Positions 34,028-51,926 of a stretch of DNA of 64,000 nucleotides are shown here, piece by piece; position 1 is the stretch's first letter; the number at the start of each line of letters is the position of its first letter. Source of the stretch: an uncultured Bacilli bacterium (GTDB lineage: Bacteria > Bacillota_I > Bacilli_A > RFN20 > CAG-826). The notes beneath the pieces are model-generated. The model saw only the letters and a list, made by a program, of their open reading frames with translations. It had not been told where the DNA came from and ran no database searches. The DNA lies in NCBI GenBank assembly GCA_934162685.1, contig CAKPJO010000001.1, positions 30,602 through 94,601 of the forward strand, in the 5' to 3' direction. Position numbers and translations under genes: made by a program.

Positions 34028-34332
34028 ACTATTTTTTCTCCATTTAATTCAAAGAATCTCAAGTAAAACAAGTTATAACAAGTATTTATTCGTTTTTATT
34101 GAGTTTGTTTTTTTATTCTTGATTTAATTCAAGAAAAAAATAGAAGGTTCTCGTGTACGCGTGTATACATGTATGCGTAACGTGTAAAACTCTTATTTTT
34201 TAGATTTATTAAATACTCTTTAATTTATTTTCCATTTAATTCAAGAAATTAGGTCTAAAGTGGTTTAAAACTAGTATTTATTAGTCTGGAGTGTGTTTGG
34301 TTAGTTTTTATCCATTCAATTCAAGAAAAAAA
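34028..34332. repeat. iteron-like TTCCATTTAATTCAAGAA boxes (4 copies here, a fifth at 36548)
   Basis: Copies at ~34028, 34115 (palindromic TTCTTGAtttaatTCAAGAA), 34229 and 34300. Confidence 0.55.
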
Positions 34333-34803
34333 TTAGTTAAAATTGATTCTGGAGTGTTTTGAGAGTTATACAGGGGCTTTGATTTATATGATTTAAGCGT
34401 TACACTTTGTAACGGTTTGGGTGTAACAGTTTGGTATGTTTTGTTTCACACTTTCGAGGATTACTCGTTTGTTCATTTGGGTATTTAGAGAAAATTTTTA
34501 AGTAGGATTTAAGCAAGATATTAAGTAGGATTTAAGTAGGATGATTGGTATGGTAAAATAAAGGATAAGTGGGAGAGAGGTGGGTCAAAGTGGGATAAAA
34601 TTAGGTGAAAGTGGGAGGTCACGTGTGCGGGCGCGTGCGCGATTTTCTAGGTGTGATATTTGTCACACTTTTGGCTGGGTCAAAGAAGAGAGAAGTCTTC
34701 TTTTTCTCCGATTCTAAGCCACTATTCTACAATTTTTTAGAATGATTCTAAAAATCAACAACTGTTAAAATATCAACAAAATAATTAAAAATGTTGAAAA
34801 AAG

Positions 34804-34854
34804 ATATCGAACACTTTGTTCGGAAACTCAGAAATATCGAACACTTTGTTCGAT
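34804..34854. promoter_or_regulatory. pair of palindromic operator-like sites ATCGAACACTTTGTTCGAT, 31 bp apart, upstream of P12
   Basis: Perfect 8-3-8 palindrome (second copy) and a near-perfect first copy. They lie 45-95 bp upstream of the -35. Confidence 0.55.
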
Positions 34855-34898
34855 TACTCAAAAGACGGTTGCACCAACTTAAAAAAACTCCAAAAAAA

Positions 34899-34940
34899 CT
34901 TGACATTTGATAAAAATCAATTATACTAAATAATGTAAAG
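34899..34940 (+). promoter_or_regulatory. sigma-A type promoter P12 (TTGACA-17-TATACT-AAATAATGTAAAGGAG)
   Basis: Family consensus. Confidence 0.55.
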
Positions 34941-34952
34941 GAGTGTGATAAT

Positions 34953-35273
34953 ATGAAACTACCAGAGACACTAACAGTACCAATGGAAGAGCAAGAGACT
35001 CTGATCAGTTGGAGTAGAAATGATGAAAAGGTAAAGATCTATACATCAGATAATACAGTACTAACAAAACTCAAGAAACTATCAGAAACAGCACCTGATA
35101 AATATAAACTAGTAAGTGTTGTTAATAATCAAGATGGCAGTGCATATTCTGTAACATTTGAAGTGAATAAAAAATGTGTAAGCTTAAGACAAGGAAAAGA
35201 AAGAGAATACACAGAAGAGCAAAAACAAGAAATGTTAGAGAGAATGTCAGCATTAAGAAATAGGAAAGGATAA
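34953..35273 (+). CDS. hypothetical protein
   Basis: RBS AAGGAG. Confidence 0.5.
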   Translation: MKLPETLTVPMEEQETLISWSRNDEKVKIYTSDNTVLTKLKKLSETAPDKYKLVSVVNNQDGSAYSVTFEVNKKCVSLRQGKEREYTEEQKQEMLERMSALRNRKG

Positions 35274-35279
35274 AGACAT

Positions 35280-36125
35280 ATGGGATACGATAAACTATTT
35301 GATGACTGGGATAAAATTAAACATCGAACAGATCATTTTCTAACGTATAATAAAGTAGAGAAAAAATATATAGAAGCATATAAAAAGGAAACGCAGGCAT
35401 GTGACGCACATGTGCCTACACATACACACGTAAATATAAATAAGGATAATATATCCGATATCCAAGAAAATCAGAAGTTCTTAAGTGAGCCATTTGTAAG
35501 ATTCAGAGGCATCGCGAAGAATGACGATGATAAGGGCTGGGTATATGGATATTACTATAAGCAATTATATAGTATAGATGAGAACGGCGCACCTATATAT
35601 AGACATTACATTGTGATGGACTGTGAGAATAAGATGACAGCGTGGATGAAAGGACTGGTAAAAGAACCGTTAAGAAGTCCAGTCTTTGTTGAAGTCATCG
35701 GAGAGACAGTCACGCAATGGACGAAGTGTACAGACATTGAAGGTAATGATATATACGAAGGTGATATCGTCGAGGTGTATGAGTTTGTTAATAATGGCGA
35801 AGGAGAGAATCATAGGCCTGTAAAAAAGAAAGTGTTTGATGGAGTAGCTGCTGTGGGTGAGATAGGTAGAGGCGAAAAGAACGGAGGACCTTGCTTGTTT
35901 GTTGGATGCATTAACGATGCAGCTAGACTGGTCGCTAAGAACTTTAGAGAAGCTGTATATGGATATAAGATCGTGGGTAACTTCTATGAGAATCCAGAGT
36001 GGTATAAAGAAAGAAAAACAGTCATAGATATAGCTGATGAAACGGACGATCGTGACGATGATGATGGCTTTGATGACATCTGGGATAGGGTTGATCCTGA
36101 AGACTGTGGAGATGATGAAGCATAA
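35280..36125 (+). CDS. hypothetical protein with a poly-Asp C-terminal tail
   Basis: GC-richer ORF. Contains a Pu-Py alternating tract in codons ~35393-35425. C-terminus DDRDDDDGFDD. Confidence 0.45.
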   Translation: MGYDKLFDDWDKIKHRTDHFLTYNKVEKKYIEAYKKETQACDAHVPTHTHVNINKDNISDIQENQKFLSEPFVRFRGIAKNDDDKGWVYGYYYKQLYSIDENGAPIYRHYIVMDCENKMTAWMKGLVKEPLRSPVFVEVIGETVTQWTKCTDIEGNDIYEGDIVEVYEFVNNGEGENHRPVKKKVFDGVAAVGEIGRGEKNGGPCLFVGCINDAARLVAKNFREAVYGYKIVGNFYENPEWYKERKTVIDIADETDDRDDDDGFDDIWDRVDPEDCGDDEA

Positions 36126-36343: not shown

Positions 36344-36766
36344 AGAGCGTAAGCCCTCTTTTTGTTTTGTTCTGTGGAATGTTGCAATAGAGTATGATGA
36401 TTCATTTTGCAATTAGATAAATTAAGAATCCAGATGAACTAAATGATCTAGATGCATCTGATGAAGCATCAAGAAAAAGATCTGGCCCTCTGGTAAAAAA
36501 GATCCCCGCCACGCTATAAAAACGTCGCCCCATCAAACATTCAATTTATTTTCCATTTATTTCAAAGAATCTCAAACAGAATCCTTCTCAGGTATAATTT
36601 AAAGGAGCTCACCGTTCTTGTCTGCTATTTAAAGAACTACCTTTAAATAAATCACGTAAAATTAAAAATAACTATATATAAACTCTTAGAAATTCTCAGA
36701 ATCGTTAATTTAATTACTTAATAATTCAAAACAATTAAAAAAAATAAAAAAAGTTTTTAAAACCTA

Positions 36767-36810
36767 TTGACTTATTTTTATATTCCTGTATACTTATTAG
36801 TGTAAAGGGG
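36767..36810 (+). promoter_or_regulatory. sigma-A type promoter P13 (TTGACT-16-TATACT-TATTAGTGTAAAGGGGG) inside the ORF-free island
   Basis: Family consensus; followed by an RBS and a 30-codon ORF. Confidence 0.5.
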
Positions 36811-36828
36811 GAAAGGAAATGAACCTCC

Positions 36829-36924
36829 AAAGTACCCCTTGCAGTTCTTTGAAAAATCAATATCGGTCCATTATCATTTTGGATAAAAAAGAATTCATCA
36901 CAGTGACGACGTCATAAAAAGAAC
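36829..36924 (+). CDS. 30-aa ORF (MNLQSTPCSSLKNQYRSIIILDKKEFITVTTS) with a strong RBS
   Basis: GGGGGAAAGGAAATG. The only credible ORF in 36.35-38.66 kb; may be a leader peptide. Confidence 0.3.
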
Positions 36925-38664
36925 TTAACCCGTCCACTCGTGAAAGATAGTCTGACGATATAAAGTGGGAAAATTGTGGTGGGGATAAAGTAGCGCTCTT
37001 GTCTGGAAATGACATACCTCCATAATTATGCAGTTCGGTATACTCTGGAGCTCTGTGCGAAGCGAGGCGTCGGTACCGTGATGAACTCTTTTAAAAGCTA
37101 GTACGGAACTTAGCCAAATCTCGCTGATACTATTAAAATAACATTTATCATGTTTTCTCCAACCTATATTTAAATGTATCTTATCGGTTAATTTATCATC
37201 ACAGGGAAATTGATGATGCAATGCAATACGCTATTAATTTTAACCAACATAGCACAACTTAGTGAATCCCCAATTCACTTCCCGCACTACTTTCCAAAAG
37301 ATTCATTCAAACCATCCCCTTAACAGGGATGCTACGAGGGCTCTGTTTAGAAGATCCTATAGGAACAGTTATTTATATTAATTTATAAACACCTGAACTT
37401 ATTATGGTCCCTATTTAAATGTGCAAATTTATTAACCCCTTCTTCAGAGCTTTCATAGGATCTTTGTTAGATCCAATTTTAGTTTTCATAAATAGATAAA
37501 GAGGACGCCTGCCTTGAACACACAGGTTTCCTTGAAGAGCAGAGATGGAATCAATCACCACCTTCCTATCGTGTTATAGTTACAGTTATAGTTGTTATGA
37601 TTTCATATTGATCAGTACCCTTTCTATCTCTGCTCCTTAAGGCAACTTGTTTACCTTAGCTCACACCGTATTCACCACTTTTCCTCCTGGTAGTACGGTG
37701 TTTTCGTCGTTATGCTTTTATCTTCGTTTAATAGATTCTTTTTTTATTGACACTGTGTCAGTAATATTCTGTGTCCTTATGTATCCAGATGATTACAAAA
37801 TGCAAGCACCTGATATTCTCTTATTTCTTACTTCTATCTATTTGCTCCAGTAAGTACAATTTTTTAATACTTTGCGGAGCAAAAATTGCACTTCAAATTC
37901 TTTTTTCCTCTGTTCAAGTGCAAAAAAATATCCGCCTCTCGTTGAAAAAAGGTCTGGCCTTATAGCTAATATATGAGCGATTAAGGTTAAAAAAGAGGTT
38001 TATCGCTAATATTTGAGCAGTTTCTCGTCATCGCATAGTATCCCCTGCGGGAGCGCCCTTTAGATCATTTTAATATTACTTTCTGGATCGTTTCTGGTTG
38101 TTATCTACCTCTTTTCTGGATGATGCATCAATGACATAATTCTGGTATAATTATGTAATAATTATATGCTCCGTAACTATATCATTGTAATGATACACTT
38201 TACACTATTCTACTCCATATGCTACACTACCTCCTCTCGTCCATTTCTTTTTTCGCTTATAGACATACACCAGATTTTTCGTGCCTATAAGGCCGAAAAA
38301 AATAGCGGCGCCGCAAAAAAAGTGGCCCTCCAGTAAAAAAAGTGGGGCGCCCGTGTAAAAAGTGCCCGCTCGCATAGTTTCCCCTGGCTGCGTAGTTTTA
38401 CGTCGGTTCATTTCCCTTCGACGGTTATTGCTTGCTTGGGGCTAGTTATAGGATCGCTTGGATTACGGATTTACTTTGCTTGAATAAAAATCAACTACTT
38501 AGACGGCGAGGAATAAAGGAGTGAACCTTTACTTTCGGCCCACTCCAGTCATGCAGCAAAATAAATATACTGCACAGACAATGAAACTTAACATAAGTCC
38601 ATTCATTGTTCACTCACCTCCTTTCCAATATATATTGTAACACATAAACTGTGTAATACAATCA

Positions 38665-39390
38665 TTAGTTTTTACCCACAACTGATAATCTTACCGTTGG
38701 AAAGATAGGACACATCATATCAAAATAATTTGCTGTGTATTCAGAAGATTCTTTTTCTTCATCAGTTAGTCCTATAGCAACTCTTTTTAACATAGAATCT
38801 GGTTTAAAGTCATCTGTGAGAACATCTATATCCACAGGAGTGCCATAGATTTTATTAATTGCATCATAGATTTTATCTTCTCCAAATCGTTCTAAATGTT
38901 CGTAATTAATAGCTAAGTTGCCAAATACTTGTAGCTGAGACACCCAGTTTTCTCTTGCTATAATTTCTTCTAATGGAAGTAAGACGTTGCTAATTGGAAA
39001 TATAGGAAACACTTTCTTACGCTTATCAATACGAGTTAAATCAATTAATAATTGTTGTGCTTCTAAAAGAGCTGATATAATAGATGAATCTTTTAACAAA
39101 GAATTATGACATCCTTCTAATCGATGACTATCTTTTCTTTTTAATGCTCTTATATAAGATCTGGTAATTTGATTTAAATCTCCTTGAATACCTAAAGAAT
39201 GTACACGTTCTAATAAAGCTCCGACGTGAAGGTCTCCATGACCTTGTAAAAAATCATATTCAACTGCAACAAGTTGTTGATCCCAAGTCATGGTATTAAC
39301 ATAATCTTCTGTGATTTCATCATTTAATTTAATGGAGTTATAGACTCTGACAATGTGTGTAATAATTTTGTATCTTAATTCGTTTTTCAT
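38665..39390 (-). CDS. hypothetical protein
   Basis: RBS GGAGGAA. Last gene of the minus block. Confidence 0.55.
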   Translation of the reverse strand: MKNELRYKIITHIVRVYNSIKLNDEITEDYVNTMTWDQQLVAVEYDFLQGHGDLHVGALLERVHSLGIQGDLNQITRSYIRALKRKDSHRLEGCHNSLLKDSSIISALLEAQQLLIDLTRIDKRKKVFPIFPISNVLLPLEEIIARENWVSQLQVFGNLAINYEHLERFGEDKIYDAINKIYGTPVDIDVLTDDFKPDSMLKRVAIGLTDEEKESSEYTANYFDMMCPIFPTVRLSVVGKN

Positions 39391-39410
39391 AATTTTTCCT
39401 CCTAATACTT

Positions 39411-39428
39411 GTTCCTATTTAATTAATA
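39411..39428 (-). promoter_or_regulatory. conserved AAAATTAAATAGGAAC box (minus sense) upstream of 38665..39390
   Basis: Minus-sense reading TGGTATAATgttattaattAAATAGGAACAAG, then RBS. Member of a 9-copy motif family. Confidence 0.5.
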
Positions 39429-39491
39429 ACATTATACCACAAGCGTTATTGAAACACAAGTGGTATAATAATTTTGGTTAATTAATATGAA

Positions 39492-39764
39492 CTACCATTC
39501 ACGATAATATTTTGTGTATGAAGTATTAGGATAAAGCTTAGAATCTTCTGCTTCTTCACATTCGGTAACAGTAATTTCAACGTGATGAGTATGACATCTT
39601 GTTTCATCAGCCATTACTTCATCTACTTTCTGTTTAAGAGCGTTGGATACTTTTGAGAAGTTATCCATAGGTTCTGTTACTCTGAACTCAAGAGTGGGTT
39701 CATTCATTTCATCACAACTAACAATTTTACAACTTCCAATATAAACAATTTTTCTCATTTTCAT
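39492..39764 (-). CDS. hypothetical protein
   Basis: RBS AGGAGGAAA. Confidence 0.5.
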   Translation of the reverse strand: MKMRKIVYIGSCKIVSCDEMNEPTLEFRVTEPMDNFSKVSNALKQKVDEVMADETRCHTHHVEITVTECEEAEDSKLYPNTSYTKYYREW

Positions 39765-39779
39765 TTTCCTCCTTATTGT

Positions 39780-40058
39780 TTATTTATTAAGATATACTTT
39801 TTTGTCATTATAGCCTAGATCTTTAATAATCTCTGGTAAATGTTCTGTTCCGAATCCTAATGATTCATAATTATTGAATCCAAAAACTTCGTCCATTTGT
39901 ATTTGTTCGTGCCATACATTAAATATGTGAGCGTGATTACCTTTCTCGCAAACACAACAACACCAACCTTCTTCTCTTCCTATATATTGTCCTGTCCAAA
40001 CATCTCCAAATGCGTCTTTTACTTTGTACCAATGACCTTTAATGAATTTACTTTTCAT
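39780..40058 (-). CDS. hypothetical protein
   Basis: RBS AAGGAGGAAC. Confidence 0.5.
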   Translation of the reverse strand: MKSKFIKGHWYKVKDAFGDVWTGQYIGREEGWCCCVCEKGNHAHIFNVWHEQIQMDEVFGFNNYESLGFGTEHLPEIIKDLGYNDKKVYLNK

Positions 40059-40094
40059 AACGTAGTTCCTCCTTTATTTTAGTTATGATAGAAT

Positions 40095-40112
40095 GTTCCT
40101 ATTGAATTTTAA
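40095..40112 (-). promoter_or_regulatory. conserved box (AAAATTCAATAGGAAC, minus sense)
   Basis: 37 nt upstream of the ATG of 39780..40058. Confidence 0.5.
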
Positions 40113-40119
40113 TTTTTAA

Positions 40120-40893
40120 TTATTTAATAATACGAATCTTAAGTTGTTCTGGATATGATATACCTGCTACACTTAATACATCATAACAAATTTCTATGAA
40201 TGATAAATCTTTATATTCTTCATCAAACATACAAGCCCCACCATCATCTTCTTTCAATTTGTTTTTCCATATTTCTATGTTCTCTTCTGTTATTTTATCT
40301 TGTATTTCGGGATTATTTTCATACACCTCATAATAAGCGTATGATTCATATCCTTCTTCATCATCTTCTTCACTTAAATCTGAAGTTCCTTCGCAAATAT
40401 GAAAAATCCAATGTTCATGTTCATAATCATTAGAATCTCCTACGGCTACCCAGAAATCTGTTTTAGTATCTGGACGTCCTTCAATTTTCATCTGAGATAA
40501 TTTTCTCATATTTTCTTGCCCTTTATAGACATCATTTATATCTACATTAAATGCTTGATGAGCAATTAATTCAAGCCAATCAATATAATATGGTTGAATA
40601 TTTTGATTGTTTTTACATTCTTCTAAAAGTTCTGCGAATGATTTACTATAAACATCTTGTAAACCATAAATTTCATTTAAGTCATCAAGAATATAATTAT
40701 CATAATATATGTCTAATCTATCTAATACAGCTGCTGTATTATCAAAACGATCCTTTTCGATTTTACCAAGATTAGCACCTTGTAAATCTTCTAAGCTATA
40801 ATATTGTATTCCTTCTACTTCTTCCTGTTTGATTAATTTGAAGTCCAAGTCCGATAACAACATAGCACAAATTTTTGCATAATTCTTTTTCAT
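40120..40893 (-). CDS. acidic hypothetical protein
   Basis: RBS AAAGGAGGAAAT. Confidence 0.55.
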   Translation of the reverse strand: MKKNYAKICAMLLSDLDFKLIKQEEVEGIQYYSLEDLQGANLGKIEKDRFDNTAAVLDRLDIYYDNYILDDLNEIYGLQDVYSKSFAELLEECKNNQNIQPYYIDWLELIAHQAFNVDINDVYKGQENMRKLSQMKIEGRPDTKTDFWVAVGDSNDYEHEHWIFHICEGTSDLSEEDDEEGYESYAYYEVYENNPEIQDKITEENIEIWKNKLKEDDGGACMFDEEYKDLSFIEICYDVLSVAGISYPEQLKIRIIK

Positions 40894-40930
40894 ACATTAT
40901 TTCCTCCTTTGTATGATTTAATAAACAACT

Positions 40931-40950
40931 GTTCCTATTTAATTTTTAAA
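40931..40950 (-). promoter_or_regulatory. conserved box (AAAAATTAAATAGGAAC, minus sense)
   Basis: 38 nt upstream of the ATG at 40893. Confidence 0.5.
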
Positions 40951-40963
40951 CTCTTGTTTAGCT

Positions 40964-41146
40964 TTAGTCTAATAATAAACAAAGCAATAATAATAAAATA
41001 AAAGGCCAAATTGGATAACCTTCTCTTTTAACTTGTTTGAACAAGAAATATAAAACCGCTCCTACAAACACCAATAAGAAAATTGCAACTTCCATATTGC
41101 ACATTCCTCCTTTCTTTTTAATTATTGAGGTGATAATCCACACCAA
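40964..41146 (-). CDS. small membrane protein
   Basis: Hydrophobic; RBS AAGGAGGAATG. Confidence 0.45.
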   Translation of the reverse strand: MVWIITSIIKKKGGMCNMEVAIFLLVFVGAVLYFLFKQVKREGYPIWPFILLLLLCLLLD

Positions 41147-41229
41147 AGTACGAAAAACAAAAGTAATAATAAAGCTAAAACTAAATAAGTATAATCTTCA
41201 TTACTCATAATATTTTCTCCTTTCTTTTA

Positions 41230-41859
41230 TTAGTGTTGATGGAAGAAAGTCATTTGACCTAACATCATCTTCCAACAATTTTTACAAGTTTTACAACTTC
41301 CTGGACATTGATATCCGCCAGCTGGTACACTTGCTTTGAATTCGGATGATTCCTTGAATTCCACATATGTAACAGGAAGCAGATATTTATTCTTAACTGT
41401 TTTATTGTATTCTTCGTCCCACATACTTAAAACAATTTTAAGATTTATAGGAAGTTTTTCAATACCGTGTTTGTCAATCCATTCATTGATTAACTCCCAT
41501 TTCTTAGTAAATGCTAAGAACATTGTTTGAGGACAAGCTAACGCAACTCTAACCATACCATCTAAATATTGTTCATCAACGATATCTCCTGATGAATGCC
41601 ATCTAAAATATTTATATGTGACATCGTCATTGTTTAAATATTTAATGACTTCATCAAAGAACGCTACGCTATCTTCATTATATGAATTATAATTATCCAT
41701 ATGAGACTTTTTAACGTTTGGATATAAATGAGTTCCTCTACGAGCGTAGCAAAGTTTTGCACAAGGTGCATTTCTTCTACAAGTGATGATTGGTGGGAGA
41801 TTTAAAGTTGGAATCTTATCTCCTAATTTACTATTTTGCAAACTGATGTGTACTAACAT
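41230..41859 (-). CDS. Cys-rich hypothetical protein (CRRNAPCAKLCY...CPGSCKTCKNC)
   Basis: RBS AGGAGGAAAAATG; probable metal-binding clusters. Confidence 0.55.
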   Translation of the reverse strand: MLVHISLQNSKLGDKIPTLNLPPIITCRRNAPCAKLCYARRGTHLYPNVKKSHMDNYNSYNEDSVAFFDEVIKYLNNDDVTYKYFRWHSSGDIVDEQYLDGMVRVALACPQTMFLAFTKKWELINEWIDKHGIEKLPINLKIVLSMWDEEYNKTVKNKYLLPVTYVEFKESSEFKASVPAGGYQCPGSCKTCKNCWKMMLGQMTFFHQH

Positions 41860-41905
41860 AACATTTTTCCTCCTTATATATAATTTGTTATGAATCGACT
41901 CGACT

Positions 41906-41925
41906 GTTCCTATTTAATTTTTAAT
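41906..41925 (-). promoter_or_regulatory. conserved box (AAAAATTAAATAGGAAC, minus sense)
   Basis: 47 nt upstream of the ATG at 41859. Confidence 0.5.
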
Positions 41926-41933
41926 TTATATGT

Positions 41934-42740
41934 TTATTCTATTAAAGAATAACACTCTATATGACCTTCTTTGTCAATAAACTTAATATTATATTTCCTA
42001 ATATTATTTAATTTGTCAACTTCTTCTGTAAATGTTCTAAATTCATCTTCTGAATAAGCATAATTTTCAGGCATAAAGACATCTCGATAATATTGATATG
42101 ATTTTTGATCTTTAGATTCATCAGCTTCTATTTCTTGTTTATCCTCATCATCAAGGTCACCAAAATTTTCTTCATATTCAAATTGATCATAAACTGCATT
42201 GACTCCAAAATAAGAAACATAAGCTTCGTGATGTTCTGTGTCAATAGTAATTTCAACATCACCTTCTGACCATGCTTGGGTGTCATCCATATCTTTGTCA
42301 AAGATACCAATTAAACCATAGTTTCTATTATAAGTAAATGCTCCATCTTCAGCCATTCTATCTTCAATAAGCTTTAATGCTTCGTCAGATAAACCAATAT
42401 CATGTTTAAGATAGTAATAGAAATTTTTACAAATAGGTCCTCGTAAATTTTCTGGAATATTGTTTCCATTATGTAAATTATTGTCTTCACAGAATTTTTG
42501 CCAATATCCTTCGTAAGTGATATTAATTCTCTTATTAGATCTCAACATAGCTTCTAAAGCGATTTGTTTAGCATTTGCTTCTGGAAATTGTTTCATCATC
42601 TCATTCATTAATTCTAACATAACAAGAGTATTAGCTGCTGCGCTATCTGTATAAGCTGACCAGTGTTGATAAACATTTGCAACTCTTTCTTCTGTTTTTC
42701 CATCATAAACTGTAATAACTAATCTTTGTCCCATAATCAT
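41934..42740 (-). CDS. acidic hypothetical protein
   Basis: RBS AAGAGGAAAATG. Confidence 0.55.
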   Translation of the reverse strand: MIMGQRLVITVYDGKTEERVANVYQHWSAYTDSAAANTLVMLELMNEMMKQFPEANAKQIALEAMLRSNKRINITYEGYWQKFCEDNNLHNGNNIPENLRGPICKNFYYYLKHDIGLSDEALKLIEDRMAEDGAFTYNRNYGLIGIFDKDMDDTQAWSEGDVEITIDTEHHEAYVSYFGVNAVYDQFEYEENFGDLDDEDKQEIEADESKDQKSYQYYRDVFMPENYAYSEDEFRTFTEEVDKLNNIRKYNIKFIDKEGHIECYSLIE

Positions 42741-42783
42741 TTTCCTCTTTTCTTTTAAATTTTTGGGAAGCCTATATGGCTTT

Positions 42784-42801
42784 GTTCCTATTTAATTTTA
42801 A
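42784..42801 (-). promoter_or_regulatory. conserved box (AAAATTAAATAGGAAC, minus sense)
   Basis: 44 nt upstream of the ATG at 42740. Confidence 0.5.
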
Positions 42802-42806
42802 CATCT

Positions 42807-43106
42807 TTACTTCAATAGTTCAAGAATTTTTTGTTTGTATTCAGATTCTTTGCACCATTGATTTGGTCCACCACGAAAATCTGTTAATGATTCTGCTGTT
42901 CTATACATTGCTAAACCATTTACTAGTTCTGTTGTGATGTAAACAATCTTTTCATTGTCTGTGTTTTGAATAAAACCAATACATCCAACTTTGTGGTAGC
43001 AAGTAACATCATCTCGTAAATAAAACTTTAGATTTTTACAATCTCTAAACATATATTTAATAGCGCGTACAGATTTTCCTTTGCTTGGTAATAAATAATT
43101 TCTCAT
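42807..43106 (-). CDS. hypothetical protein
   Basis: Coupled to 43109..43387. Confidence 0.5.
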   Translation of the reverse strand: MRNYLLPSKGKSVRAIKYMFRDCKNLKFYLRDDVTCYHKVGCIGFIQNTDNEKIVYITTELVNGLAMYRTAESLTDFRGGPNQWCKESEYKQKILELLK

Positions 43107-43108
43107 TT

Positions 43109-43387
43109 TTATTTTCCTCCTATTGGTTTAATAAGAATAACTTCAACATCATTATCAGGGTCATCTGTTCCTGATTCAATATAAATGGTAATGCGAACAT
43201 CTTCATCTTCTTGTGGAGTAACATCAGCTTCTTCGTTACGAATGATTTGTACATTAGGAATTGTTTGAATAGCCGATATATATTCTTTTACCATATTTTT
43301 TGCTTCTTTTAAAGAATTAAAATAATGAATAGAAGAAGAATGATGGTCACAAATTTCTGCATATACTCTTCTTTTTTGTTTTTTCAT
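43109..43387 (-). CDS. hypothetical protein
   Basis: RBS AGGAGGAATC. Confidence 0.5.
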   Translation of the reverse strand: MKKQKRRVYAEICDHHSSSIHYFNSLKEAKNMVKEYISAIQTIPNVQIIRNEEADVTPQEDEDVRITIYIESGTDDPDNDVEVILIKPIGGK

Positions 43388-43410
43388 CTTGATTCCTCCT
43401 TTCTTTAGAA

Positions 43411-43698
43411 CTAGTCAGCATAACCTGCCGCTAGTTCTAATAAATCCCATTTATCCATTTGATCAATTTCTGCCCAAGATTTTTCTCTTCTTAAAGCATG
43501 TAACATTTCAACATAGCAATCAGGATTAAGATTATTAGGATCTTTTAATCCTAAATAACTTGCGTGACCGCATAATTGTTCAAATTCTTCATCATCAATG
43601 TTTACATCATATAAACATTGTACCGCATTCGCAATATTTACATCCCATACACTAATATTCTTTTCATTTAAGACTTCTAATTTTTGTTTGTAATTCAT
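43411..43698 (-). CDS. hypothetical protein
   Basis: RBS AGGAGGAAAATAATTATG. Confidence 0.5.
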   Translation of the reverse strand: MNYKQKLEVLNEKNISVWDVNIANAVQCLYDVNIDDEEFEQLCGHASYLGLKDPNNLNPDCYVEMLHALRREKSWAEIDQMDKWDLLELAAGYAD

Positions 43699-43732
43699 AA
43701 TTATTTTCCTCCTATATATGAATTTAACGACT

Positions 43733-43750
43733 GTTCCTATTGATTTATGT
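43733..43750 (-). promoter_or_regulatory. conserved box (variant ATAAATCAATAGGAAC, minus sense)
   Basis: 35 nt upstream of the ATG at 43698. Confidence 0.45.
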
Positions 43751-43769
43751 ATTAAAATGAATAATAAAA

Positions 43770-44231
43770 TTATTTACTTAATAAGCGACGTATTCTTTCT
43801 ATTACTTGCGGTATCAATCTATCATTGATATATGCAGCAGAATATTTATTTTGAACATCATCTATTTTTGCTTTTTCTGTAATGTCAGAATATCCTTGTT
43901 CAAAAAGAAGCGAAACTTGTCTTAATTTATTGTACGTTGATATGTAGTCATATAATTCATCAAGTTCTTCTTCTGTTAAAGGTGTTGCTTCCATTGTTTT
44001 TCTAAATTCTGTTTGTGTCAATAATCCTTGAGAATAATAATCAGGATATCCTTCAGGACGACCTAATATGACCATATTGAGATAGTCCCAATGTGGAGAT
44101 TTTTCATCTCGTTCTTTAACAAATTGAGGTTCTCTTAACCAATATCTGCGTCCAATTTTATTACGACCTAATAAATAATGATTGACTCCTAAATAAACTT
44201 TTGTTTGTTTTAACATTTTTCTTTTACGCAT
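43770..44231 (-). CDS. hypothetical protein (paralog of 45851..46339)
   Basis: Shared YWL(Q/R)xP(E/Q)(W/F) N-terminal and GYSxxT(D/E)xAKID...ERI(D/R)xLL C-terminal blocks. Confidence 0.55.
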   Translation of the reverse strand: MRKRKMLKQTKVYLGVNHYLLGRNKIGRRYWLREPQFVKERDEKSPHWDYLNMVILGRPEGYPDYYSQGLLTQTEFRKTMEATPLTEEELDELYDYISTYNKLRQVSLLFEQGYSDITEKAKIDDVQNKYSAAYINDRLIPQVIERIRRLLSK

Positions 44232-44271
44232 ATTTTTCTTCCTCCTATTTAACTAATAAGTAAAAGAGAGA

Positions 44272-44745
44272 TTATCCGAAGACAATCTCTCCAAATAAAG
44301 CCCATTGGATAATTAAATCTCCACTTACAGCATCAGCATAATCACCAAGATAATCTTCAACATCATCATATCCTGCGTGAGCCATTTCTTTTCCAAGACC
44401 TTCTAATACTCGATCAAGTGTTAACTTCCAAGGGTCACCTTCTACTCCTTTTTCGTGATTTAAATCATCTTCGCCTTCTCCCTCAGCATCTTCAAATCCA
44501 ACATAGCCTCCATTCCATAAGATATAAGCTGCTACATCTGAACAGAAAACATCTTCATCTTCAGGATGTTCCTTTTTATATTTTTCTTCCCAGTTTTTCC
44601 AATTTTTTGAAGCGTTATCAAGCATTGCCCAATAACCAATTCCACCTTCAAGTGCAATAGCCATAACATCACATAAATTATCTTGTATAATTTCAACTGT
44701 CTTTGTAATAGTGATTTTTTTAGTTTCTACGTTTTTCATAATCAT
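44272..44745 (-). CDS. acidic hypothetical protein
   Basis: RBS GAGGAAAAATG. Confidence 0.5.
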   Translation of the reverse strand: MIMKNVETKKITITKTVEIIQDNLCDVMAIALEGGIGYWAMLDNASKNWKNWEEKYKKEHPEDEDVFCSDVAAYILWNGGYVGFEDAEGEGEDDLNHEKGVEGDPWKLTLDRVLEGLGKEMAHAGYDDVEDYLGDYADAVSGDLIIQWALFGEIVFG

Positions 44746-44768
44746 TTTTCCTCGATTCTTTGAATTTT

Positions 44769-44803
44769 GTTCCTATTTAGTTTTAATGTTCCTATTTGAT
44801 TTG
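44769..44803 (-). promoter_or_regulatory. two tandem conserved boxes (AAACTAAATAGGAAC; AAATCAAATAGGAAC, minus sense)
   Basis: 24 and 43 nt upstream of the ATG at 44745. Confidence 0.5.
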
Positions 44804-45067
44804 TTCTTTTAGTTTTTTGATTTCTCTTTGCATACGATCCATATTGTCAACTACATCGTTTGTGTATTCAACAATTTTTCTTTCATTATATTCTTCTAAA
44901 TTTTCATTACGACAATAAGGACAAACTCCTCTTGTACCATAATGATAAGCGTGATATGGATCATAAAGACCATATTCATCTTCATAACAGAATCGTTCTT
45001 CTTCAAGATCATCTTCTGTCATAAAATGTTCACAATTTGGACAAAAATATATCATTTTGTTCACCAC
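44792..45067 (-). CDS. zinc-ribbon protein (CPNC...CPYC)
   Basis: RBS AAAGGTGGTG. Confidence 0.5.
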   Translation of the reverse strand: MVNKMIYFCPNCEHFMTEDDLEEERFCYEDEYGLYDPYHAYHYGTRGVCPYCRNENLEEYNERKIVEYTNDVVDNMDRMQREIKKLKEQIK

Positions 45068-45073
45068 CTTTCT

Positions 45074-45532
45074 TTATTTAACAGCAAGAATATCTTTAAT
45101 ATTTTTATTAAAGACTTCTGGAGTTTCTTTCTTAACCCATTGAGAAGGTTGAGTAACTCCCATAGCTTCTTCTTTTGTTATTGAATTACCATCAAAATAA
45201 TAACCAATAACTTTTGGACGATGAAGGAATATTTTAGATGTTGTCATTCGGATGTATGTTTCACCTTTATTTTCAATCATCCATCTATTTTTCCATTCTC
45301 CCCAAGGCAAGACTTCTTTAATTTCACCTACCATTCCAATAGCTTGTCTTTTTTCAATAACAGATTTAATATTAGAATATCTAACACCAAATCTTACTAC
45401 AGATTGTACTACTTTTGTAATAATGTGTCCTTTAAAATTTTTGTTTGGAGTAATGTTTGTTTGATATGTTACTTGAACATAAGCTCCTTGATGTTTATTT
45501 GAAATAATATTTAATAATTCTTGTTTTTCCAT
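45074..45532 (-). CDS. hypothetical protein
   Basis: RBS AGAGAGGAAAAATTATCATG. Confidence 0.5.
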   Translation of the reverse strand: MEKQELLNIISNKHQGAYVQVTYQTNITPNKNFKGHIITKVVQSVVRFGVRYSNIKSVIEKRQAIGMVGEIKEVLPWGEWKNRWMIENKGETYIRMTTSKIFLHRPKVIGYYFDGNSITKEEAMGVTQPSQWVKKETPEVFNKNIKDILAVK

Positions 45533-45596
45533 GATAATTTTTCCTCTCTTTCTATATATATTATATCATGTTTAATAATGTTTGTAAAGACAAAGA

Positions 45597-45854
45597 CTAT
45601 CCTAAATAGATAGCTTTGTCTTTGTCGTCTAAAATCATTAAGTCGTGGTTTATAGATTCATAATATTCTCTAGTAGATGAACCTTCTGCTTTTTCAATAC
45701 TTTTAATTGTTTCTCCTGAATAATATAAAGCATGATATCCGTTAGCCTCTTCATCATCTGTGACAAATATCACATAATCGCCGTGACCTTTTCGAATTTC
45801 TTCTCTAAGATATTTATATAAATCTTCGACTGTTAACGCTCCACATTTTGTCAT
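45597..45854 (-). CDS. hypothetical protein
   Basis: RBS AGGAGGTGAAAG; overlaps the upstream stop. Confidence 0.5.
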   Translation of the reverse strand: MTKCGALTVEDLYKYLREEIRKGHGDYVIFVTDDEEANGYHALYYSGETIKSIEKAEGSSTREYYESINHDLMILDDKDKAIYLG

Positions 45855-46339
45855 TTTCTTTCACCTCCTAACAAATTGTCAATACGTTCGAATATTGCTG
45901 GTAACAAAGTTTTATTAATGCAATTCTCAAAATCTTCGTTTTTTAATACATCAATTTTTGCTTCATCTGTTTGATAACTATAACCTCGATGTAATATTTC
46001 TGCTGTTGTTATTAAATTATAACACGACATCATATAATCAATTAATTGATATTTTTCATTTTCATTTAAAGTAGTTTCTACAAAAAACTTATCAAATGCG
46101 TATATGGCGAAGCCTGTCGTATTATTTAAAAATAAATAATTAAAATGAGTATCAAAATCAATATTTCTGCTTAATTCAGAATTACGATTGTTAGATAAAA
46201 TATCTACACAGCCAAAATTCCAATACTCATGCCAACCGCACGCCCATTCGGGTGCTTGTAGCCAATATTTTTTGCCTTCTTTATCCTTTCCTAATAAATA
46301 AAACTTTTTTCCATGCCAATAAATTACTTTCTTTTTCAT
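45851..46339 (-). CDS. hypothetical protein (paralog of 43770..44231)
   Basis: Start reset to ATG 46339 (GGAGGTGAAAATTATG). The ORF-track start at 46462 would overlap the upstream gene. Confidence 0.5.
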   Translation of the reverse strand: MKKKVIYWHGKKFYLLGKDKEGKKYWLQAPEWACGWHEYWNFGCVDILSNNRNSELSRNIDFDTHFNYLFLNNTTGFAIYAFDKFFVETTLNENEKYQLIDYMMSCYNLITTAEILHRGYSYQTDEAKIDVLKNEDFENCINKTLLPAIFERIDNLLGGERK

Positions 46340-46358
46340 AATTTTCACCTCCTTCTTT

Positions 46359-48833
46359 TTATCCTCTACAACAAAGAGCCCCATATTGAGAATGAATTGA
46401 TGTTTCATCAACATTCCCTGTTTCTTGTGCCCATTGTAATAAAGCTTGCACAATTTCAGCACTAGGGTTACTATTGCATGATCCGTGGACTTGTCTTATA
46501 GAAAACTTATTATTGATAGAACCATTTTGAGCAAGTTCTATTGTAAAATACGGTTCTGATAGATTATTATTTCTTCTGAAAAATAATATTGTAGTATGTT
46601 TGCTTGCAAACGCTTCTTGATAAGAACTTACGCAATGATGTAAAACTTTTCCTTCTGTGGATAAATCTTCTACTTTTTCAGGAACTAAAATAGTAAACTT
46701 ATCATTACTCCAAGCAAATTTCTTTTGTAATGTTTTTTTCCAAGACTTATATGATTCATTTAATAGTTTGGATTTTTCAACACTGATCATTTGTTTAAAA
46801 GTATCATAATTTTCTGACATAAAATCATGAAGACAATGAATTTTCATTTTAATATCTGTTGTTAATATGGCTGCTTTTAACCAACGAACAGAAAGTTGTG
46901 GCAAATGTTTTGTAACACATTCACAAACATATGACAAATTATTATTTTTAAAATCTTCTTTGGCTGTTGGAAAATCAATCGGAATTAATTTGATTTTTTC
47001 CTTCATTTGATAATAATCATATAATTCATAAGATTTAATTATATCTGTTGTACTAATTTTGTTTAATATACGAATAATTTCAGAATCTGAAAGTCCTTGT
47101 TCTGGAATTGTAAAGTTATAAAATCTCATAATATTAACAATTAATTGTTGTGTACTTAAACGACCATTATTGTTTTGATAAAAAATAAATGCTTTAAACA
47201 TTTCTAAAGTTATATATTTGCCATATTTTTTAGCAACTTGTTTTTTAGATAATGTTTTTACATTTGAATCAAACCTATAATATCCATAATTACACCAAGA
47301 AGAATAATATGTCATGGTCATTTTTCCTTTTAAAATATTAATTAAATAATATAATATATCATTATAAAAATCAATACCAACATAAGATTTATCAAAAATT
47401 GTTGCATCTTTTATAAAATCTTCGTAATTTTTCTTGCTTAAATAACATTGTTCATACATTTTAGTTTTTTGTATATCACAATCTGTGTCAAATAATAATT
47501 GTGTCACTCGTGACGCTGTACGAGCGTTAGTAATATTTGTTGAACAAAACAATTTTCTTGTCTCTATAAATTCATTAACATATGTAGAACCATAATGCTT
47601 AATAAAACTTTCATATGTCATATCTTTATAGTATAAAGGATTAAACAAGGGCTCTAATATTTCTTGATATATTAAGCCTCCAATAGTTATATTTCTATCA
47701 TAATAAGCATAAGAATAATTACTATTTTTACTATATTTATCATTAATGTTGTACGAAGATAAAATTTCTGCAAAACTATTATTTGGAAACATTGAATTAA
47801 AAATGTAATTTAAACCATGAATCTCTTGAATCTCAGAAATATGTTCTTGAATACAATTTATAATTTGTTGAAAACTCTGTACATCTGAATAATTAACACT
47901 ATTGAAAGTTTGATATTTATTAGTTGTTTTATCAGTTGTTAATTCTCCTTGTGATGAAGATAGAAAACATTCACAGTTTCCTGTCTTTTTGTCATATACG
48001 TGTAATATTATATTTCTCCAATAGTTTTTATTATACATTAAAAGATACACATTATCTTGATCAGATTCAATATGCAATATATTGTTTGATTTAATCAATT
48101 CTTTTATTTTGTTTTGAAACATGTCTTGGTATGTTAACAATTTTGATTTTTGAATTGTTTTATGTGCAAATTTTGTTTTGTTTGGATGTTTAATACATTC
48201 AATAAATGTTGCAATAGGAAACATCTCGTTATAATCTATAGAGTGTGTTATTTGCCACCAATTTTTTAACACAGTTAAATCAAAACCTTGTTCCTTCAAT
48301 ATTTTTGTTGAAAAAGGTGATAAACGTCCAAATGGATACCCATTATCTGGATAAGTCTCTATTGTGTTTATATTTACAAATCTAATATCTTGGAGATTGG
48401 ATACATTACTAATTTTCCAAGATCTTTCTTTTGGTTCAATAAATTTCTTATCTTGGTCGTACACTTCCCAATCATTTGTAATGTAATACATAGGTTCATT
48501 ACGATATAAATAAGGAAATGCCTTTCTATTTGCAACATAGGAATTAAACAAATATATGCCAACACCCTTTTTATTATTAATAGTACATTTTTCAATGAAA
48601 ATATAGTTTTTAGAAGCATTTTTAATAGGAAATAATAAAGCATAATCTTTAACATCTTCTAATACTAGTTGTCCTTGTTTATCATAAATTTTTCCTGCTG
48701 GTGTTACTATATACATTGGTAATTGGCATAATTGTTTGTGTGTCTCTACCTCAACTTCTCTTAAAGGTGATTTTAATGTGTTTACTTTAATTTTGTTATT
48801 CATAATTTTTTCCTCCAATTTTTCCTTTTTCAA
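46359..48833 (-). CDS. large hypothetical protein (824 aa) with a C-terminal His/Cys-rich conserved module
   Basis: RBS GGAGGAAAAAATTATG. C-terminus LHHCVSSYQEA...YFTIEL...IRQVHGSCNSNP. Confidence 0.6.
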   Translation of the reverse strand: MKKEKLEEKIMNNKIKVNTLKSPLREVEVETHKQLCQLPMYIVTPAGKIYDKQGQLVLEDVKDYALLFPIKNASKNYIFIEKCTINNKKGVGIYLFNSYVANRKAFPYLYRNEPMYYITNDWEVYDQDKKFIEPKERSWKISNVSNLQDIRFVNINTIETYPDNGYPFGRLSPFSTKILKEQGFDLTVLKNWWQITHSIDYNEMFPIATFIECIKHPNKTKFAHKTIQKSKLLTYQDMFQNKIKELIKSNNILHIESDQDNVYLLMYNKNYWRNIILHVYDKKTGNCECFLSSSQGELTTDKTTNKYQTFNSVNYSDVQSFQQIINCIQEHISEIQEIHGLNYIFNSMFPNNSFAEILSSYNINDKYSKNSNYSYAYYDRNITIGGLIYQEILEPLFNPLYYKDMTYESFIKHYGSTYVNEFIETRKLFCSTNITNARTASRVTQLLFDTDCDIQKTKMYEQCYLSKKNYEDFIKDATIFDKSYVGIDFYNDILYYLINILKGKMTMTYYSSWCNYGYYRFDSNVKTLSKKQVAKKYGKYITLEMFKAFIFYQNNNGRLSTQQLIVNIMRFYNFTIPEQGLSDSEIIRILNKISTTDIIKSYELYDYYQMKEKIKLIPIDFPTAKEDFKNNNLSYVCECVTKHLPQLSVRWLKAAILTTDIKMKIHCLHDFMSENYDTFKQMISVEKSKLLNESYKSWKKTLQKKFAWSNDKFTILVPEKVEDLSTEGKVLHHCVSSYQEAFASKHTTILFFRRNNNLSEPYFTIELAQNGSINNKFSIRQVHGSCNSNPSAEIVQALLQWAQETGNVDETSIHSQYGALCCRG

Positions 48834-48873
48834 GGGATAAGAATATTTTTAAGGAGAAAATATTCAAAACCTT

Positions 48874-48892
48874 GTTCCTATTTTATTTTAAA
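48874..48892 (-). promoter_or_regulatory. conserved box (AAAATAAAATAGGAAC, minus sense)
   Basis: 41 nt upstream of the ATG at 48833. Confidence 0.5.
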
Positions 48893-48900
48893 CTTAAAGA

Positions 48901-49461
48901 TTAATAATCACAATCTTCGTCTTCGCCGTCATAATTATCTTCATCATAATCTTCACAACATTCCATTCTTTCCTCCTGAAGAGCTTTTTCAACTCTTTCT
49001 TTTAATATGACGTCTAAATCTTCTTGAGATAATTTAGATTTCAAATCATTGCAATTTGCAATTTCTTTACCTTCGTGGTCATAAGCAATTTTGCCTTTGA
49101 CTAGAATTTCAATTCCATTATCTAATTTAAAGCTATGATCTGGAATCATTTCTGCTTCCACAAATTGTTGTGCAATATTACATTGTGTATAGACTTGAGA
49201 AATATTCATTCCCATTGAAGCATAAAGATTTAACATCTTTTCTTTATCTTCTGCAGAGCTTGCAAATCCAATTAACATTTCTGTTCTAGGATCATAAACT
49301 GGAATTAATTTACCTGCATCAATCATTTTGATAGTATCTAAAATACCTTTTTGAGGCATTTCTTGATATTTTTTTATTAATGCTTCTTTAGCTGCTTTCT
49401 TTTTTGCTTCTTTTCTTTCTTCTGCTGCTCTTTTTAAATTTTCTAATACTGTGTTTTTCAT
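48901..49461 (-). CDS. hypothetical protein with an acidic Cys-containing tail
   Basis: RBS AGGAGGAAAACAG. Confidence 0.5.
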   Translation of the reverse strand: MKNTVLENLKRAAEERKEAKKKAAKEALIKKYQEMPQKGILDTIKMIDAGKLIPVYDPRTEMLIGFASSAEDKEKMLNLYASMGMNISQVYTQCNIAQQFVEAEMIPDHSFKLDNGIEILVKGKIAYDHEGKEIANCNDLKSKLSQEDLDVILKERVEKALQEERMECCEDYDEDNYDGEDEDCDY

Positions 49462-49494
49462 AACTGTTTTCCTCCTATAATATAAATGTTATGA

Positions 49495-49532
49495 TGTTCC
49501 TATTGAGTTATTGTTCCTATTTAATTTTTATA
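49495..49532 (-). promoter_or_regulatory. two tandem conserved boxes (AAAAATTAAATAGGAAC; ACTCAATAGGAAC, minus sense)
   Basis: 34 and 52 nt upstream of the ATG at 49461. Confidence 0.5.
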
Positions 49533-49544
49533 TAATAAAATGTA

Positions 49545-49988
49545 TTAAAAATCAATTTTAATTGCTATTAATACATCATTATTATTAAAATAACCAGATA
49601 CTGAATACATACCGTCACCAAATCCAGTATGAGCCAAGAAAATGTTTTCTTTTTGCCATAACATAGCAGATGAATTTATTTCATCCATGAATTTGAGATT
49701 ATCATTTATAGAAGAATTATCCCATTTGTCTCTGATACTCATCATTCCAGAATCTACTGTTACAATGTTTAATGGGGCATTAATGCTCATTTCACTGATT
49801 TCAGTATCTTTTGGCATAATCATCATTCTAATAACACGATTAGTTGATTCATTAACTTTAACGTAACAATCGTAATTGCCTTTTTTAATTTCTAATTTTA
49901 ATGATTCATAATTATAACAAGGATCGCCTATATAGACGATTCCTTTTGTTAAATCTAATGTGTTGTGCAATTTAATAAGTTTATTCAT
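49545..49988 (-). CDS. hypothetical protein
   Basis: RBS AGGAGGAAAAC. Confidence 0.5.
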   Translation of the reverse strand: MNKLIKLHNTLDLTKGIVYIGDPCYNYESLKLEIKKGNYDCYVKVNESTNRVIRMMIMPKDTEISEMSINAPLNIVTVDSGMMSIRDKWDNSSINDNLKFMDEINSSAMLWQKENIFLAHTGFGDGMYSVSGYFNNNDVLIAIKIDF

Positions 49989-50002
49989 TTTTGTTTTCCT
50001 CC

Positions 50003-50656: not shown

Positions 50657-50932
50657 TTAATTTTCCTCTTTCTTTAGATAAATAATGTTTGTCACTTGTC
50701 TATCAGGTAAGCTGTTCCTATATTGTCCGTATATATAATATTTTTTCATTTTTTCAGCAAGTTGAATTTGATTCATATTTCTATCGAAGAAATAATAATC
50801 ATCTTTTGGTTTATTATATTTATCCTTTTTTGTATGTATTCGGACCACATACTGGACATTCATATAATTAAGATATTGCTGAAAGGATCTGATTACAACA
50901 GATCCTCTTTTCATCTCCATTCCATTAATCAC
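50657..50932 (-). CDS. hypothetical protein
   Basis: Coupled to neighbours; contains an internal copy of the GTTCCTAT box near its 3' end. Confidence 0.4.
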   Translation of the reverse strand: MINGMEMKRGSVVIRSFQQYLNYMNVQYVVRIHTKKDKYNKPKDDYYFFDRNMNQIQLAEKMKKYYIYGQYRNSLPDRQVTNIIYLKKEEN

Positions 50933-51449: not shown

Positions 51450-51926
51450 TTACATCACCTCCTTTCCAAATACGCCACTAAGCATTATGTCAACTTTTTG
51501 ACCAATTTGTTTTTCACAAGTTGGAGAAAGTTGAATATTTAAATCATCTTTTTCTTTTTGAAGATTTTCAATAATCTTAGTAGTTTCTATTCTTTTTATT
51601 TTAAGTCTAGACTCTCTAAGTTCATTGGCTGACGGCAAAAAGTCAGGTCTACTATTATTTTTAAACTCCTCTAAATAAGCTGGAGCTAAATAAGTGGTAT
51701 CAACAAGATTTGCTGCCATCCATCTGCCTTCTCGATCTTTCTTCAAATTAAAAGCAACTTGGACTCCCACCTTTGCATAGCAACGATGAGACATTAATTG
51801 TTTAAAATGAAAGAAAAGATTTTCGTCAAATTTGCCATTACCCCATTGTGGAGTAATATAGCCATAACCTCCTTTCGTATTAACTGAAATAATTGTTCCG
51901 ATAAACATTTGATTTTGATGTAACAT
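51450..51926 (-). CDS. cold-shock-domain (OB-fold) protein
   Basis: N-terminal GTIISVNTKGGYGYI resembles the CspA motif GxVKWFNxxKGFGFI. Confidence 0.5.
   Translation of the reverse strand: MLHQNQMFIGTIISVNTKGGYGYITPQWGNGKFDENLFFHFKQLMSHRCYAKVGVQVAFNLKKDREGRWMAANLVDTTYLAPAYLEEFKNNSRPDFLPSANELRESRLKIKRIETTKIIENLQKEKDDLNIQLSPTCEKQIGQKVDIMLSGVFGKEVM

Follow-up and report, generated by a model that had tools for sequence, protein, structure and literature searches.

The window analysed here, that is, the whole stretch of 64,000 nucleotides (nt), derives from a phage genome of about 140 kilobases (kb) and contains a short conserved box that recurs upstream of minus-strand genes. The window has a guanine-cytosine (GC) content of about 30 %, and no DNA match to deposited phages was found in INPHARED in near or distant search modes, with the box region included. 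Contigs encoding identical or near-identical window proteins measure 135–142 kb and come from human gut metagenomes, where the lineage is common, Hadza samples being among them. No integrase was seen in these contigs, which look like free phage genomes of about 135–142 kb. The plus strand of the first 36 kb carries replication and nucleotide-metabolism genes, including those for a primase, an exonuclease, a PolIII-alpha-type polymerase, a RecD-like helicase, an RNA ligase, and CCA-type nucleotidyltransferases. The minus strand from 38.6 to 62.8 kb holds mainly small genes without assigned function, in addition to genes for ClpP, an AAA ATPase, an SprT-like protein, and a cold-shock-domain protein (51450–51926). 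Links to SPbeta are provided by YonO, YorF, a YopX domain, and the RecD-like helicase, the last being closest to those of SPbeta-like, Thomasclavelia, and Brevibacillus phages (about 30 % identity). YonO-encoding relatives have Thomasclavelia and Enterocloster as hosts. No tRNA genes and no Rfam matches at the gathering score were found anywhere in the window; Rfam scans by E value covered the regions outside the box array.

The box array spans about 10 kb of accessory genes, arranged in units of one to three closely packed genes with a gap at the head of each (Table 1). An initial annotation had placed box copies upstream of a series of start codons, and all of these were present. A motif scan of the window, of the kind that it had proposed, detected the invariant 10-mer core, AATAGGAACA, as 11 exact matches against 0.25 expected and a maximum of 2 in shuffled sequence, a frequency clearly above expectation. 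This 10-mer ranked first among the over-represented 10-mers of the whole window, with the Shine-Dalgarno sequence behind it, and the 15-mer AAATTAAATAGGAAC, allowing up to two mismatches, gave 9 matches against 1.15 expected, a number reached in 0 of 100 shuffles. All 11 cores were located on the minus strand between 39410 and 49521 in sense orientation to the genes, and all were intergenic, though intergenic DNA makes up 7.8 % of 38665–49988 (P about 6e-13). The distance from core end to start codon varied from 19 to 69 nt, and two pairs of boxes were in tandem, spaced by 19 nt (44768/44787) and 17 nt (49495/49512). Two other copies in the same annotation were also recovered, namely the degenerate copy before the start at 44231, which reads TTAGTTAAATAGGAGG, and an intragenic copy within 50657–50932, which reads ATATAGGAACA (50713–50723).

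Alignment of the copies yielded the extended consensus tAAAAtT(A/C)AATAGGAACA, which is 17–20 nt long and holds about 21 bits over 19 positions. Conservation was strongest in ATAGGAACA, the part containing GGAACA, rather than in the stretch resembling a −10. In this alignment, conserved positions were absent upstream of −10, with no information at a −35 position, and no conserved element was found downstream, positions +11 to +24 being without information. Beyond ±10 nt, the flanks of paralogous copies were identical at a fraction of 0.33–0.34 against 0.29 expected, which is a random level, so the box stands as a discrete unit of about 20 nt and not a piece of a larger duplication.

We compared the window with four relatives (L021, L037, L038, and L039) that are 75–97 % identical in the large PcfJ-domain protein. 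The sequence ATAGGAACA was unchanged at all orthologous sites in the four, whereas position −3 and the upstream flanks varied. Two further ATAGGAACA cores, which the initial annotation had not listed, lie orphaned in non-coding DNA at 59104–59112 (−) and 37359–37367 (+), and both are conserved in relatives. In an exact 16-mer scan of a viral collection, multiple copies were found in the same lineage only; a second viral contig with two matches proved to hold duplicated sequence and not a box system. Scans of genome and metagenome collections gave single, chance-like matches only among the matches listed, and a literature search for the box string returned nothing relevant.

Table 1. Boxes, neighbouring transcription signals, and candidate reader genes (the lower coordinate of each numbered box is the start of its core)
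Feature	Coordinates	Strand	Remarks
Box 1	39410–39426	−	TTAATTAAATAGGAACA; 19 nt before ATG 39390; just downstream of a sigma-A-type promoter
Sigma-A-type promoter	39431–39459	−	TTGTGT-17-(TG)gTATAAT; predicted start at the 5′ edge of box 1; conserved in relatives
Box 2	40094–40110	−	AAAATTCAATAGGAACA; 35 nt before ATG 40058
Box 3	40930–40946	−	AAAATTAAATAGGAACA; 36 nt before ATG 40893
Box 4	41905–41921	−	45 nt before ATG 41859 of a GP88-family gene
Box 5	42783–42799	−	42 nt before ATG 42740
Box 6	43732–43748	−	CATAAATCAATAGGAACA; 33 nt before ATG 43698; in L037 directly after the terminator hairpin
Degenerate box	44241–44256	−	TTAGTTAAATAGGAGG; fused to the Shine-Dalgarno sequence of gene 43770–44231
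Intrinsic-terminator-like hairpin	44265–44292	−	−16.6 kcal/mol; 12-bp stem with TTCG loop; directly ahead of the degenerate box
Box 7	44768–44784	−	Proximal copy of tandem pair; 22 nt before ATG 44745
Box 8	44787–44803	−	Distal copy of tandem pair; TAG of the box is the stop codon of open reading frame 44792–45067
Near-consensus sigma-A promoter	45560–45588	−	TTTACA-17-TGnTATAAT; 11 of 12 matches; sole long gap of the array lacking a box
Box 9	48873–48889	−	69 nt before probable ATG 48803 of the 814-amino-acid PcfJ-domain protein
Box 10	49495–49511	−	Proximal copy of tandem pair; 33 nt before ATG 49461
Box 11	49512–49528	−	Distal copy of tandem pair; single box here in L039; upstream half in L021 is unrelated DNA at an indel boundary
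Orphan core	59104–59112	−	ATAGGAACA; about 330 nt ahead of gene 58774, in 1.1 kb of non-coding DNA past the YonO-type polymerase genes; conserved in relatives
Orphan core	37359–37367	+	ATAGGAACA; opposite strand, non-coding 36.4–38.6 kb; reads AATAGGAACA in relatives
Sigma-70-family protein	32458–33135	+	225 amino acids; regions 2 and 4; closest to SigK/SigE/SigH models; candidate reader
YonO-type RNA polymerase, C-terminal part	61641–62834	−	397 amino acids; phrog_8308 positions 604–728
Gap splitting the YonO-type gene	62835–63343	−	509 nt; probably a group I intron
YonO-type RNA polymerase, 3′ end of N-terminal part	63344–64000	−	556 amino acids in identical contigs; stops at DADYD; runs off the window

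Gene content around the boxes varies among close relatives. L021 has a 0.9-kb gene in place of a 92-amino-acid gene (window 43121–43393), each junction falling at a Shine-Dalgarno sequence, and it lacks the 147-amino-acid gene 49545–49988 (compared region 49525–50002). We considered the box as a recombination junction and rejected this identity: an indel boundary abuts box 11, but no box repeats border the insert, and the joins of the other cassette swap fall at Shine-Dalgarno sequences. We likewise set aside nick sites, Chi sites, iterons, and parS, as the copies are strictly intergenic and gene-oriented over 10 kb.

Within the array, every gap of at least 40 nt contained a box, with three exceptions. 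One of these gaps carries a sigma-A promoter with 11 of 12 matches, another has a strong terminator hairpin followed by the degenerate box, and the third vanishes if gene 40964–41146 starts at an upstream ATG. Only one terminator was found inside the array. The relative L037 lacks the gene after the terminator, and there a full box comes straight after the hairpin, with the next gene behind it. A box placed directly after a terminator, as in L037 and, in degenerate form, in the window, argues for initiation at the box and not for processing of read-through RNA. As the initial annotation had observed, TTGACA-17-TATAAT is absent from most box loci; a recognisable sigma-A promoter was present at one of the nine, upstream of box 1. 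GP88-family homologues in unrelated phages lie in arrays in which each small gene has its own strong promoter, which indicates that arrays of this kind are usually promoted unit by unit.

From these features we infer that the box is a compact, single-element, phage-specific promoter that would start transcription at the GG of ATAGGAACA and would not be read by plain host sigma-A, a reading to which we assign about an even chance. A promoter fits best with a box that fills the promoter slot at the head of each unit of one to three genes, and with leader lengths that vary as 5′ untranslated regions do. The first transcribed base would be at the GG or shortly past it (39414/39415, to take box 1), leaving 5′ leaders of about 20–75 nt, and the transcripts would extend as far as the cluster end near 38.6 kb, given the single terminator inside the array. 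The distinct promoter class suggested by the initial annotation is thereby the best-supported reading, by virtue of the promoter slot, the order of terminator then box, the missing −35, and the invariant core, and it stays an interpretation of sequence.

The phage's own sigma-A promoters provided a reference for this reading. A dozen (window 3680–34950, plus strand; L028 2718–2843) were found in the form TTGACt-17-TATAAT-AAATAGTGTAA, with a conserved start region and often after terminators, and the AAATAG that the initial annotation had seen in both these promoters and the box was confirmed. The two align as TATAAT-AAATAG and (T)AAAAT-T-AAATAG, the A-rich 5′ half of the box falling on the −10 element and its AAATAG on the start region. 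The same promoter class stands before replication genes and packaging genes. Flanks of about 20 kb were taken from contigs having a protein in common with the window, and the packaging, structural, and replication genes examined there had no box ahead, the packaging and replication genes carrying sigma-A promoters. Since sigma-A promoters head the replication and packaging genes, the box is the only other repeated promoter-like class seen in the window and its flanks of about 20 kb.

The shared register would also be expected if the boxes were weak −10-only promoters (TAAAAT/AAAAAT at −7 to −2 of the box) used by host sigma-A, with GGAACA as a conserved initial transcribed sequence, and −35-like hexamers do occur at the right spacing at three loci (42784 TTGAAC-17-TAAAAT; 48913–48885 TTGTGA-17-TAAAAT; 49561–49532). 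This is the least likely of the rival explanations and in our judgement very improbable. Conservation peaks in ATAGGAACA and not in the −10-like part, a hexamer with five of six matches accompanies only 3 of the 11 boxes, no TG extension is present, and the orphan cores are entirely without the A-rich part. In addition, promoter-like matches in the region were no commoner than in shuffled sequence (100 vs 92.9 ± 11.4, that is, no enrichment), and the real sigma-A promoters of the phage are near consensus with a strong −35. A sigma-A (sigma-70) housekeeping promoter was rejected because no conserved −35 lies 16–18 base pairs (bp) upstream of the −10. The box as the −35 of an extracytoplasmic function (ECF)-, SigH-, or gp28-type promoter was also rejected; GGAAC is present, but no conserved −10 (CGTC-like) lies downstream, and with GGAAC at −35, the ECF-type start of the genes at 39390 and 44745 would fall within the start codon or beyond it. 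The TCATAAC/TCATACA that recurs downstream of some boxes does so at spacings of 0–17 nt and was treated as noise.

A different explanation, the alternative raised in the initial annotation, places the function of the box in RNA, as a 5′-leader element of a long polycistronic transcript that sets mRNA stability or translation; it could be a site for a host or phage endoribonuclease, or for a protein such as a CsrA-like GGA binder or the cold-shock-domain protein (51450–51926). Every copy, both orphan cores included, is sense to local transcription, the plus-strand orphan lying past a sigma-A promoter at about 36760, and read-through RNA is likely because the array is nearly free of terminators. 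The core AUAGGAAC is purine-rich and Shine-Dalgarno-like, merging with a real Shine-Dalgarno sequence in one unit, and a hammerhead-like core in another leader of the cluster hints at RNA processing. We nevertheless regard this explanation as unlikely. The spacing to the Shine-Dalgarno sequence and start codon varies (19–69 nt), no conserved structure or covarying helix was found around the box, the downstream flanks are unrelated, and no Rfam family was matched at the gathering score. The box of L037 directly behind the terminator hairpin also speaks against it. Known short RNase and CsrA sites hold less information than the roughly 21 bits over 19 positions found here.

Both readers envisaged for the box in the initial annotation, a phage specificity factor and a phage RNA polymerase, have candidates in this lineage. 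The proposed sigma factor at 32458–33135 was confirmed as a sigma-70-family protein whose alignment with the sigma-70/ECF superfamily model takes in regions 2 and 4, PDB matches covering region 2 only. The polymerase candidate is encoded at the head of the strand that carries the boxes. In contigs sharing the 397-amino-acid protein, the gene just upstream encodes a 556-amino-acid protein with the Pfam family label RdRP. This protein was 27.9 % identical to SPBc2 yonO (tblastn, E 1e-25) and matched positions 69–552 of the YonO family profile phrog_8308 (E 1.5e-84). Its open reading frame ends exactly at the catalytic motif DADYD, equivalent to DNDGD in YonO and DFDGD in TR-TP1 gp3. The 509-nt insert that follows lacks an open reading frame and contains two AGATATAGTC-type motifs, which we take to be typical of group I introns, and it gave a weak Rfam group I intron match on the correct strand (15.8 bits, E 0.26). 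Positions 61641–64000 are thus probably one YonO-type RNA polymerase gene, interrupted at the active site by a group I intron that would be self-splicing. A T7-like Pol I-family RNA polymerase was found neither among the scanned window proteins nor among the Pfam labels of flanking-contig genes. The PcfJ-domain protein (824 amino acids from the TTG start) was considered as a polymerase and rejected, only its C-terminal PcfJ domain having homologues; its gene probably starts at ATG 48803 rather than at TTG 48833.

In SPbeta, YonO is the polymerase of the late genes, and one start site has been mapped, within a long piece of non-coding DNA that follows yonO and yonN, with the promoter sequence still to be determined (Forrest et al. 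2017, PMC5467207). No later paper defining a YonO promoter was found in the literature search. In both SPbeta and TR-TP1, yonO is followed directly, on its own strand, by a cluster of late genes, and transcription of this cluster by YonO was demonstrated in SPbeta. The present phage resembles SPbeta in having a YonO homologue with the boxes and the orphan core at 59104–59112 downstream on the same strand, and it is this synteny that favours the YonO-type enzyme as the reader. It differs in that SPbeta has one mapped start and one long late operon, whereas here 11–13 copies precede accessory genes and the packaging genes have sigma-A promoters; the genes downstream of the polymerase are accessory genes, unlike the late genes of SPbeta. 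A sigma-A promoter lies ahead of the polymerase gene. We envisage the reader as a phage-encoded device made early from sigma-A promoters, with the YonO-type single-chain RNA polymerase as the first candidate and the phage sigma as the second. Of the initial proposal, the polymerase option has therefore gained weight from the YonO-type gene on the same strand, and the sigma link has become weaker. That the box is the promoter of this two-barrel, QDE-1-like polymerase is put forward as a tentative possibility.

In overall form, the box recalls the promoters of the T7 class (T7, T3, SP6, K11), which have a TATA stretch followed by GGGAGA. As in that class, one contiguous, highly conserved element of about 20 bp without a −35 is repeated ahead of many genes of a single strand, where terminators are few, and an AT-rich stretch leads into a purine-rich start, AATA followed by GGAACA in the box, the comparison being one of form with the general consensus. 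The single repeated element of about 20 bp is present (17–20 nt, about 21 bits, 11 copies) and would span the start site, and its information content exceeds what is needed for site finding. The sequences are unrelated, however, and the candidate polymerase is of the unrelated YonO/QDE-1 two-barrel type. T4 late promoters, TATAAATA, for which gp55 is the reader together with gp33 and the sliding clamp, consist of a −10-type element only, and the box has TTAAATA in a comparable position. They differ from the box in that the most conserved part of the box (GGAACA) lies downstream of the −10-type element, and in that the phage sigma has region 4, which gp55 lacks.

Several observations weigh against the box as a phage-specific promoter or against its proposed readers. 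A sigma with region 4 would be expected to use a two-part promoter with a −35, unlike the box, which counts against the sigma as reader. No box-like repeat was found in the YonO phages MT835481 or TR-TP1 (first 45 kb), and the SPbeta region containing the YonO start site, bracketed by the published primer-extension primers, showed only a weak AATAG resemblance and no convincing match to the box. Packaging and structural genes are boxless here, whereas YonO of SPbeta transcribes late genes. The orphan cores are without the A-rich half of the box. Counted from the good sigma-A promoter beside it, box 1 covers about +1 to +17, a typical operator position, and tandem copies 17–19 nt apart are no less suited to a DNA-binding protein than to a polymerase.

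The last of these points lead to the strongest rival, which the initial annotation had not raised and in which the box is an operator for a phage DNA-binding regulator, either a repressor acting by roadblock or occlusion or possibly an activator, and the array is one regulon. The model for it is SPBRE, an oriented, non-palindromic element that occurs at about 10 promoter regions of SPbeta and serves as the binding site of MrpR, the master repressor of that phage (Kohm et al. 2023, PMC10516654). We re-derived SPBRE from SPBc2 as ACAAATACAAAWAATATGTATAWAA, an element of about 25 bp lying 2–60 nt before Shine-Dalgarno sequences, with two copies before yonX. The box is likewise oriented, non-palindromic, AT-rich, and about 15–25 bp long, with around 10 copies upstream of genes that are sometimes in tandem or touch a Shine-Dalgarno sequence, and its carrier is a YonO-encoding relative with further ties to SPbeta. 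The orphan cores, in non-coding DNA on both strands, would suit an operator as well. Even so, we consider this explanation rather doubtful: the box and SPBRE have unrelated sequences, and whereas SPBRE sites stand with recognisable sigma-A promoters, 8 of the 9 box loci have none to repress. A tblastn search with YopR (MrpR) against the window and L028, L031, L032, and L037 gave only matches with E > 1, and the contigs look like free phage genomes in which no integrase was seen.

The non-coding stretches that hold the orphan cores, 58775–59900 (−) and 36400–38600 (1.1 and 2.2 kb), have a GC content above that of their surroundings and may encode structured RNAs; neither matched an Rfam family. 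Downstream of yonO, SPbeta likewise carries a long non-coding region that contains an unannotated RNA. After the sigma gene, 33136–36000 is an unusual, GC-richer non-coding region with four copies of approximately CCATTTAATTCAAGAA and two of ATATCGAACACTTTGTTCG, and the 142-kb contig of a relative stops 334 nt past the sigma gene. This region may be a genome terminus, a replication origin, or an assembly-breaking repeat, and the non-coding DNA from 33.1 to 38.6 kb as a whole may contain the genome end or repeats. Just past the last array gene, a 40-codon open reading frame (38491–38613, −) with a strong Shine-Dalgarno sequence encodes the very hydrophobic peptide MNGLMLSFIVCAVYLFCCMTGVGRK.

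A second repeated upstream region, about 80 nt long, was found before genes 55679 and 57747 (about 55680–55800 and 57748–57830, −). It contains the palindrome TTAAATGTTTGGCAAACATTTAA followed by AGTATAAAAAGATATA, and looks like an operator plus promoter of another class. The leader of gene 57136–57747 also contains a complete hammerhead-ribozyme core that could be read by hand at about 57836–57887 (−), in the order CUCUG-UC, stem I hairpin, CUGAUGA, GCU-UUCG-AGC, and GAAA-CAGAG. Rfam reported nothing for this core at E ≤ 1, and the stretch carrying it is missing in more diverged relatives. A second, imperfect hammerhead core (CUGAUGAG...GAAAC) lies at about 58850–58945 (−). On the plus strand, the PolIII-alpha-type DNA polymerase is encoded in two open reading frames, 3721–7479 and 13024–14583, about 5.5 kb apart. 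Small genes and a LAGLIDADG/HNH open reading frame (12018–13031) lie between them, and the first frame of relatives also has intein and LAGLIDADG domains.

A phage-specific promoter is in itself a familiar kind of element, and it is the context, a sigma factor and a YonO-type polymerase in one lineage, that raises its interest. If the box were instead an operator, a regulon of about 20 accessory genes without known function would be jointly controlled. The 11–13 conserved natural copies constitute a ready template set, with which the question of the reader is directly testable. Should the YonO-type polymerase read the box, these copies would provide the first promoter consensus for this polymerase family, and they would indicate that a YonO-type polymerase can drive a regulon of accessory genes and not a structural late operon.

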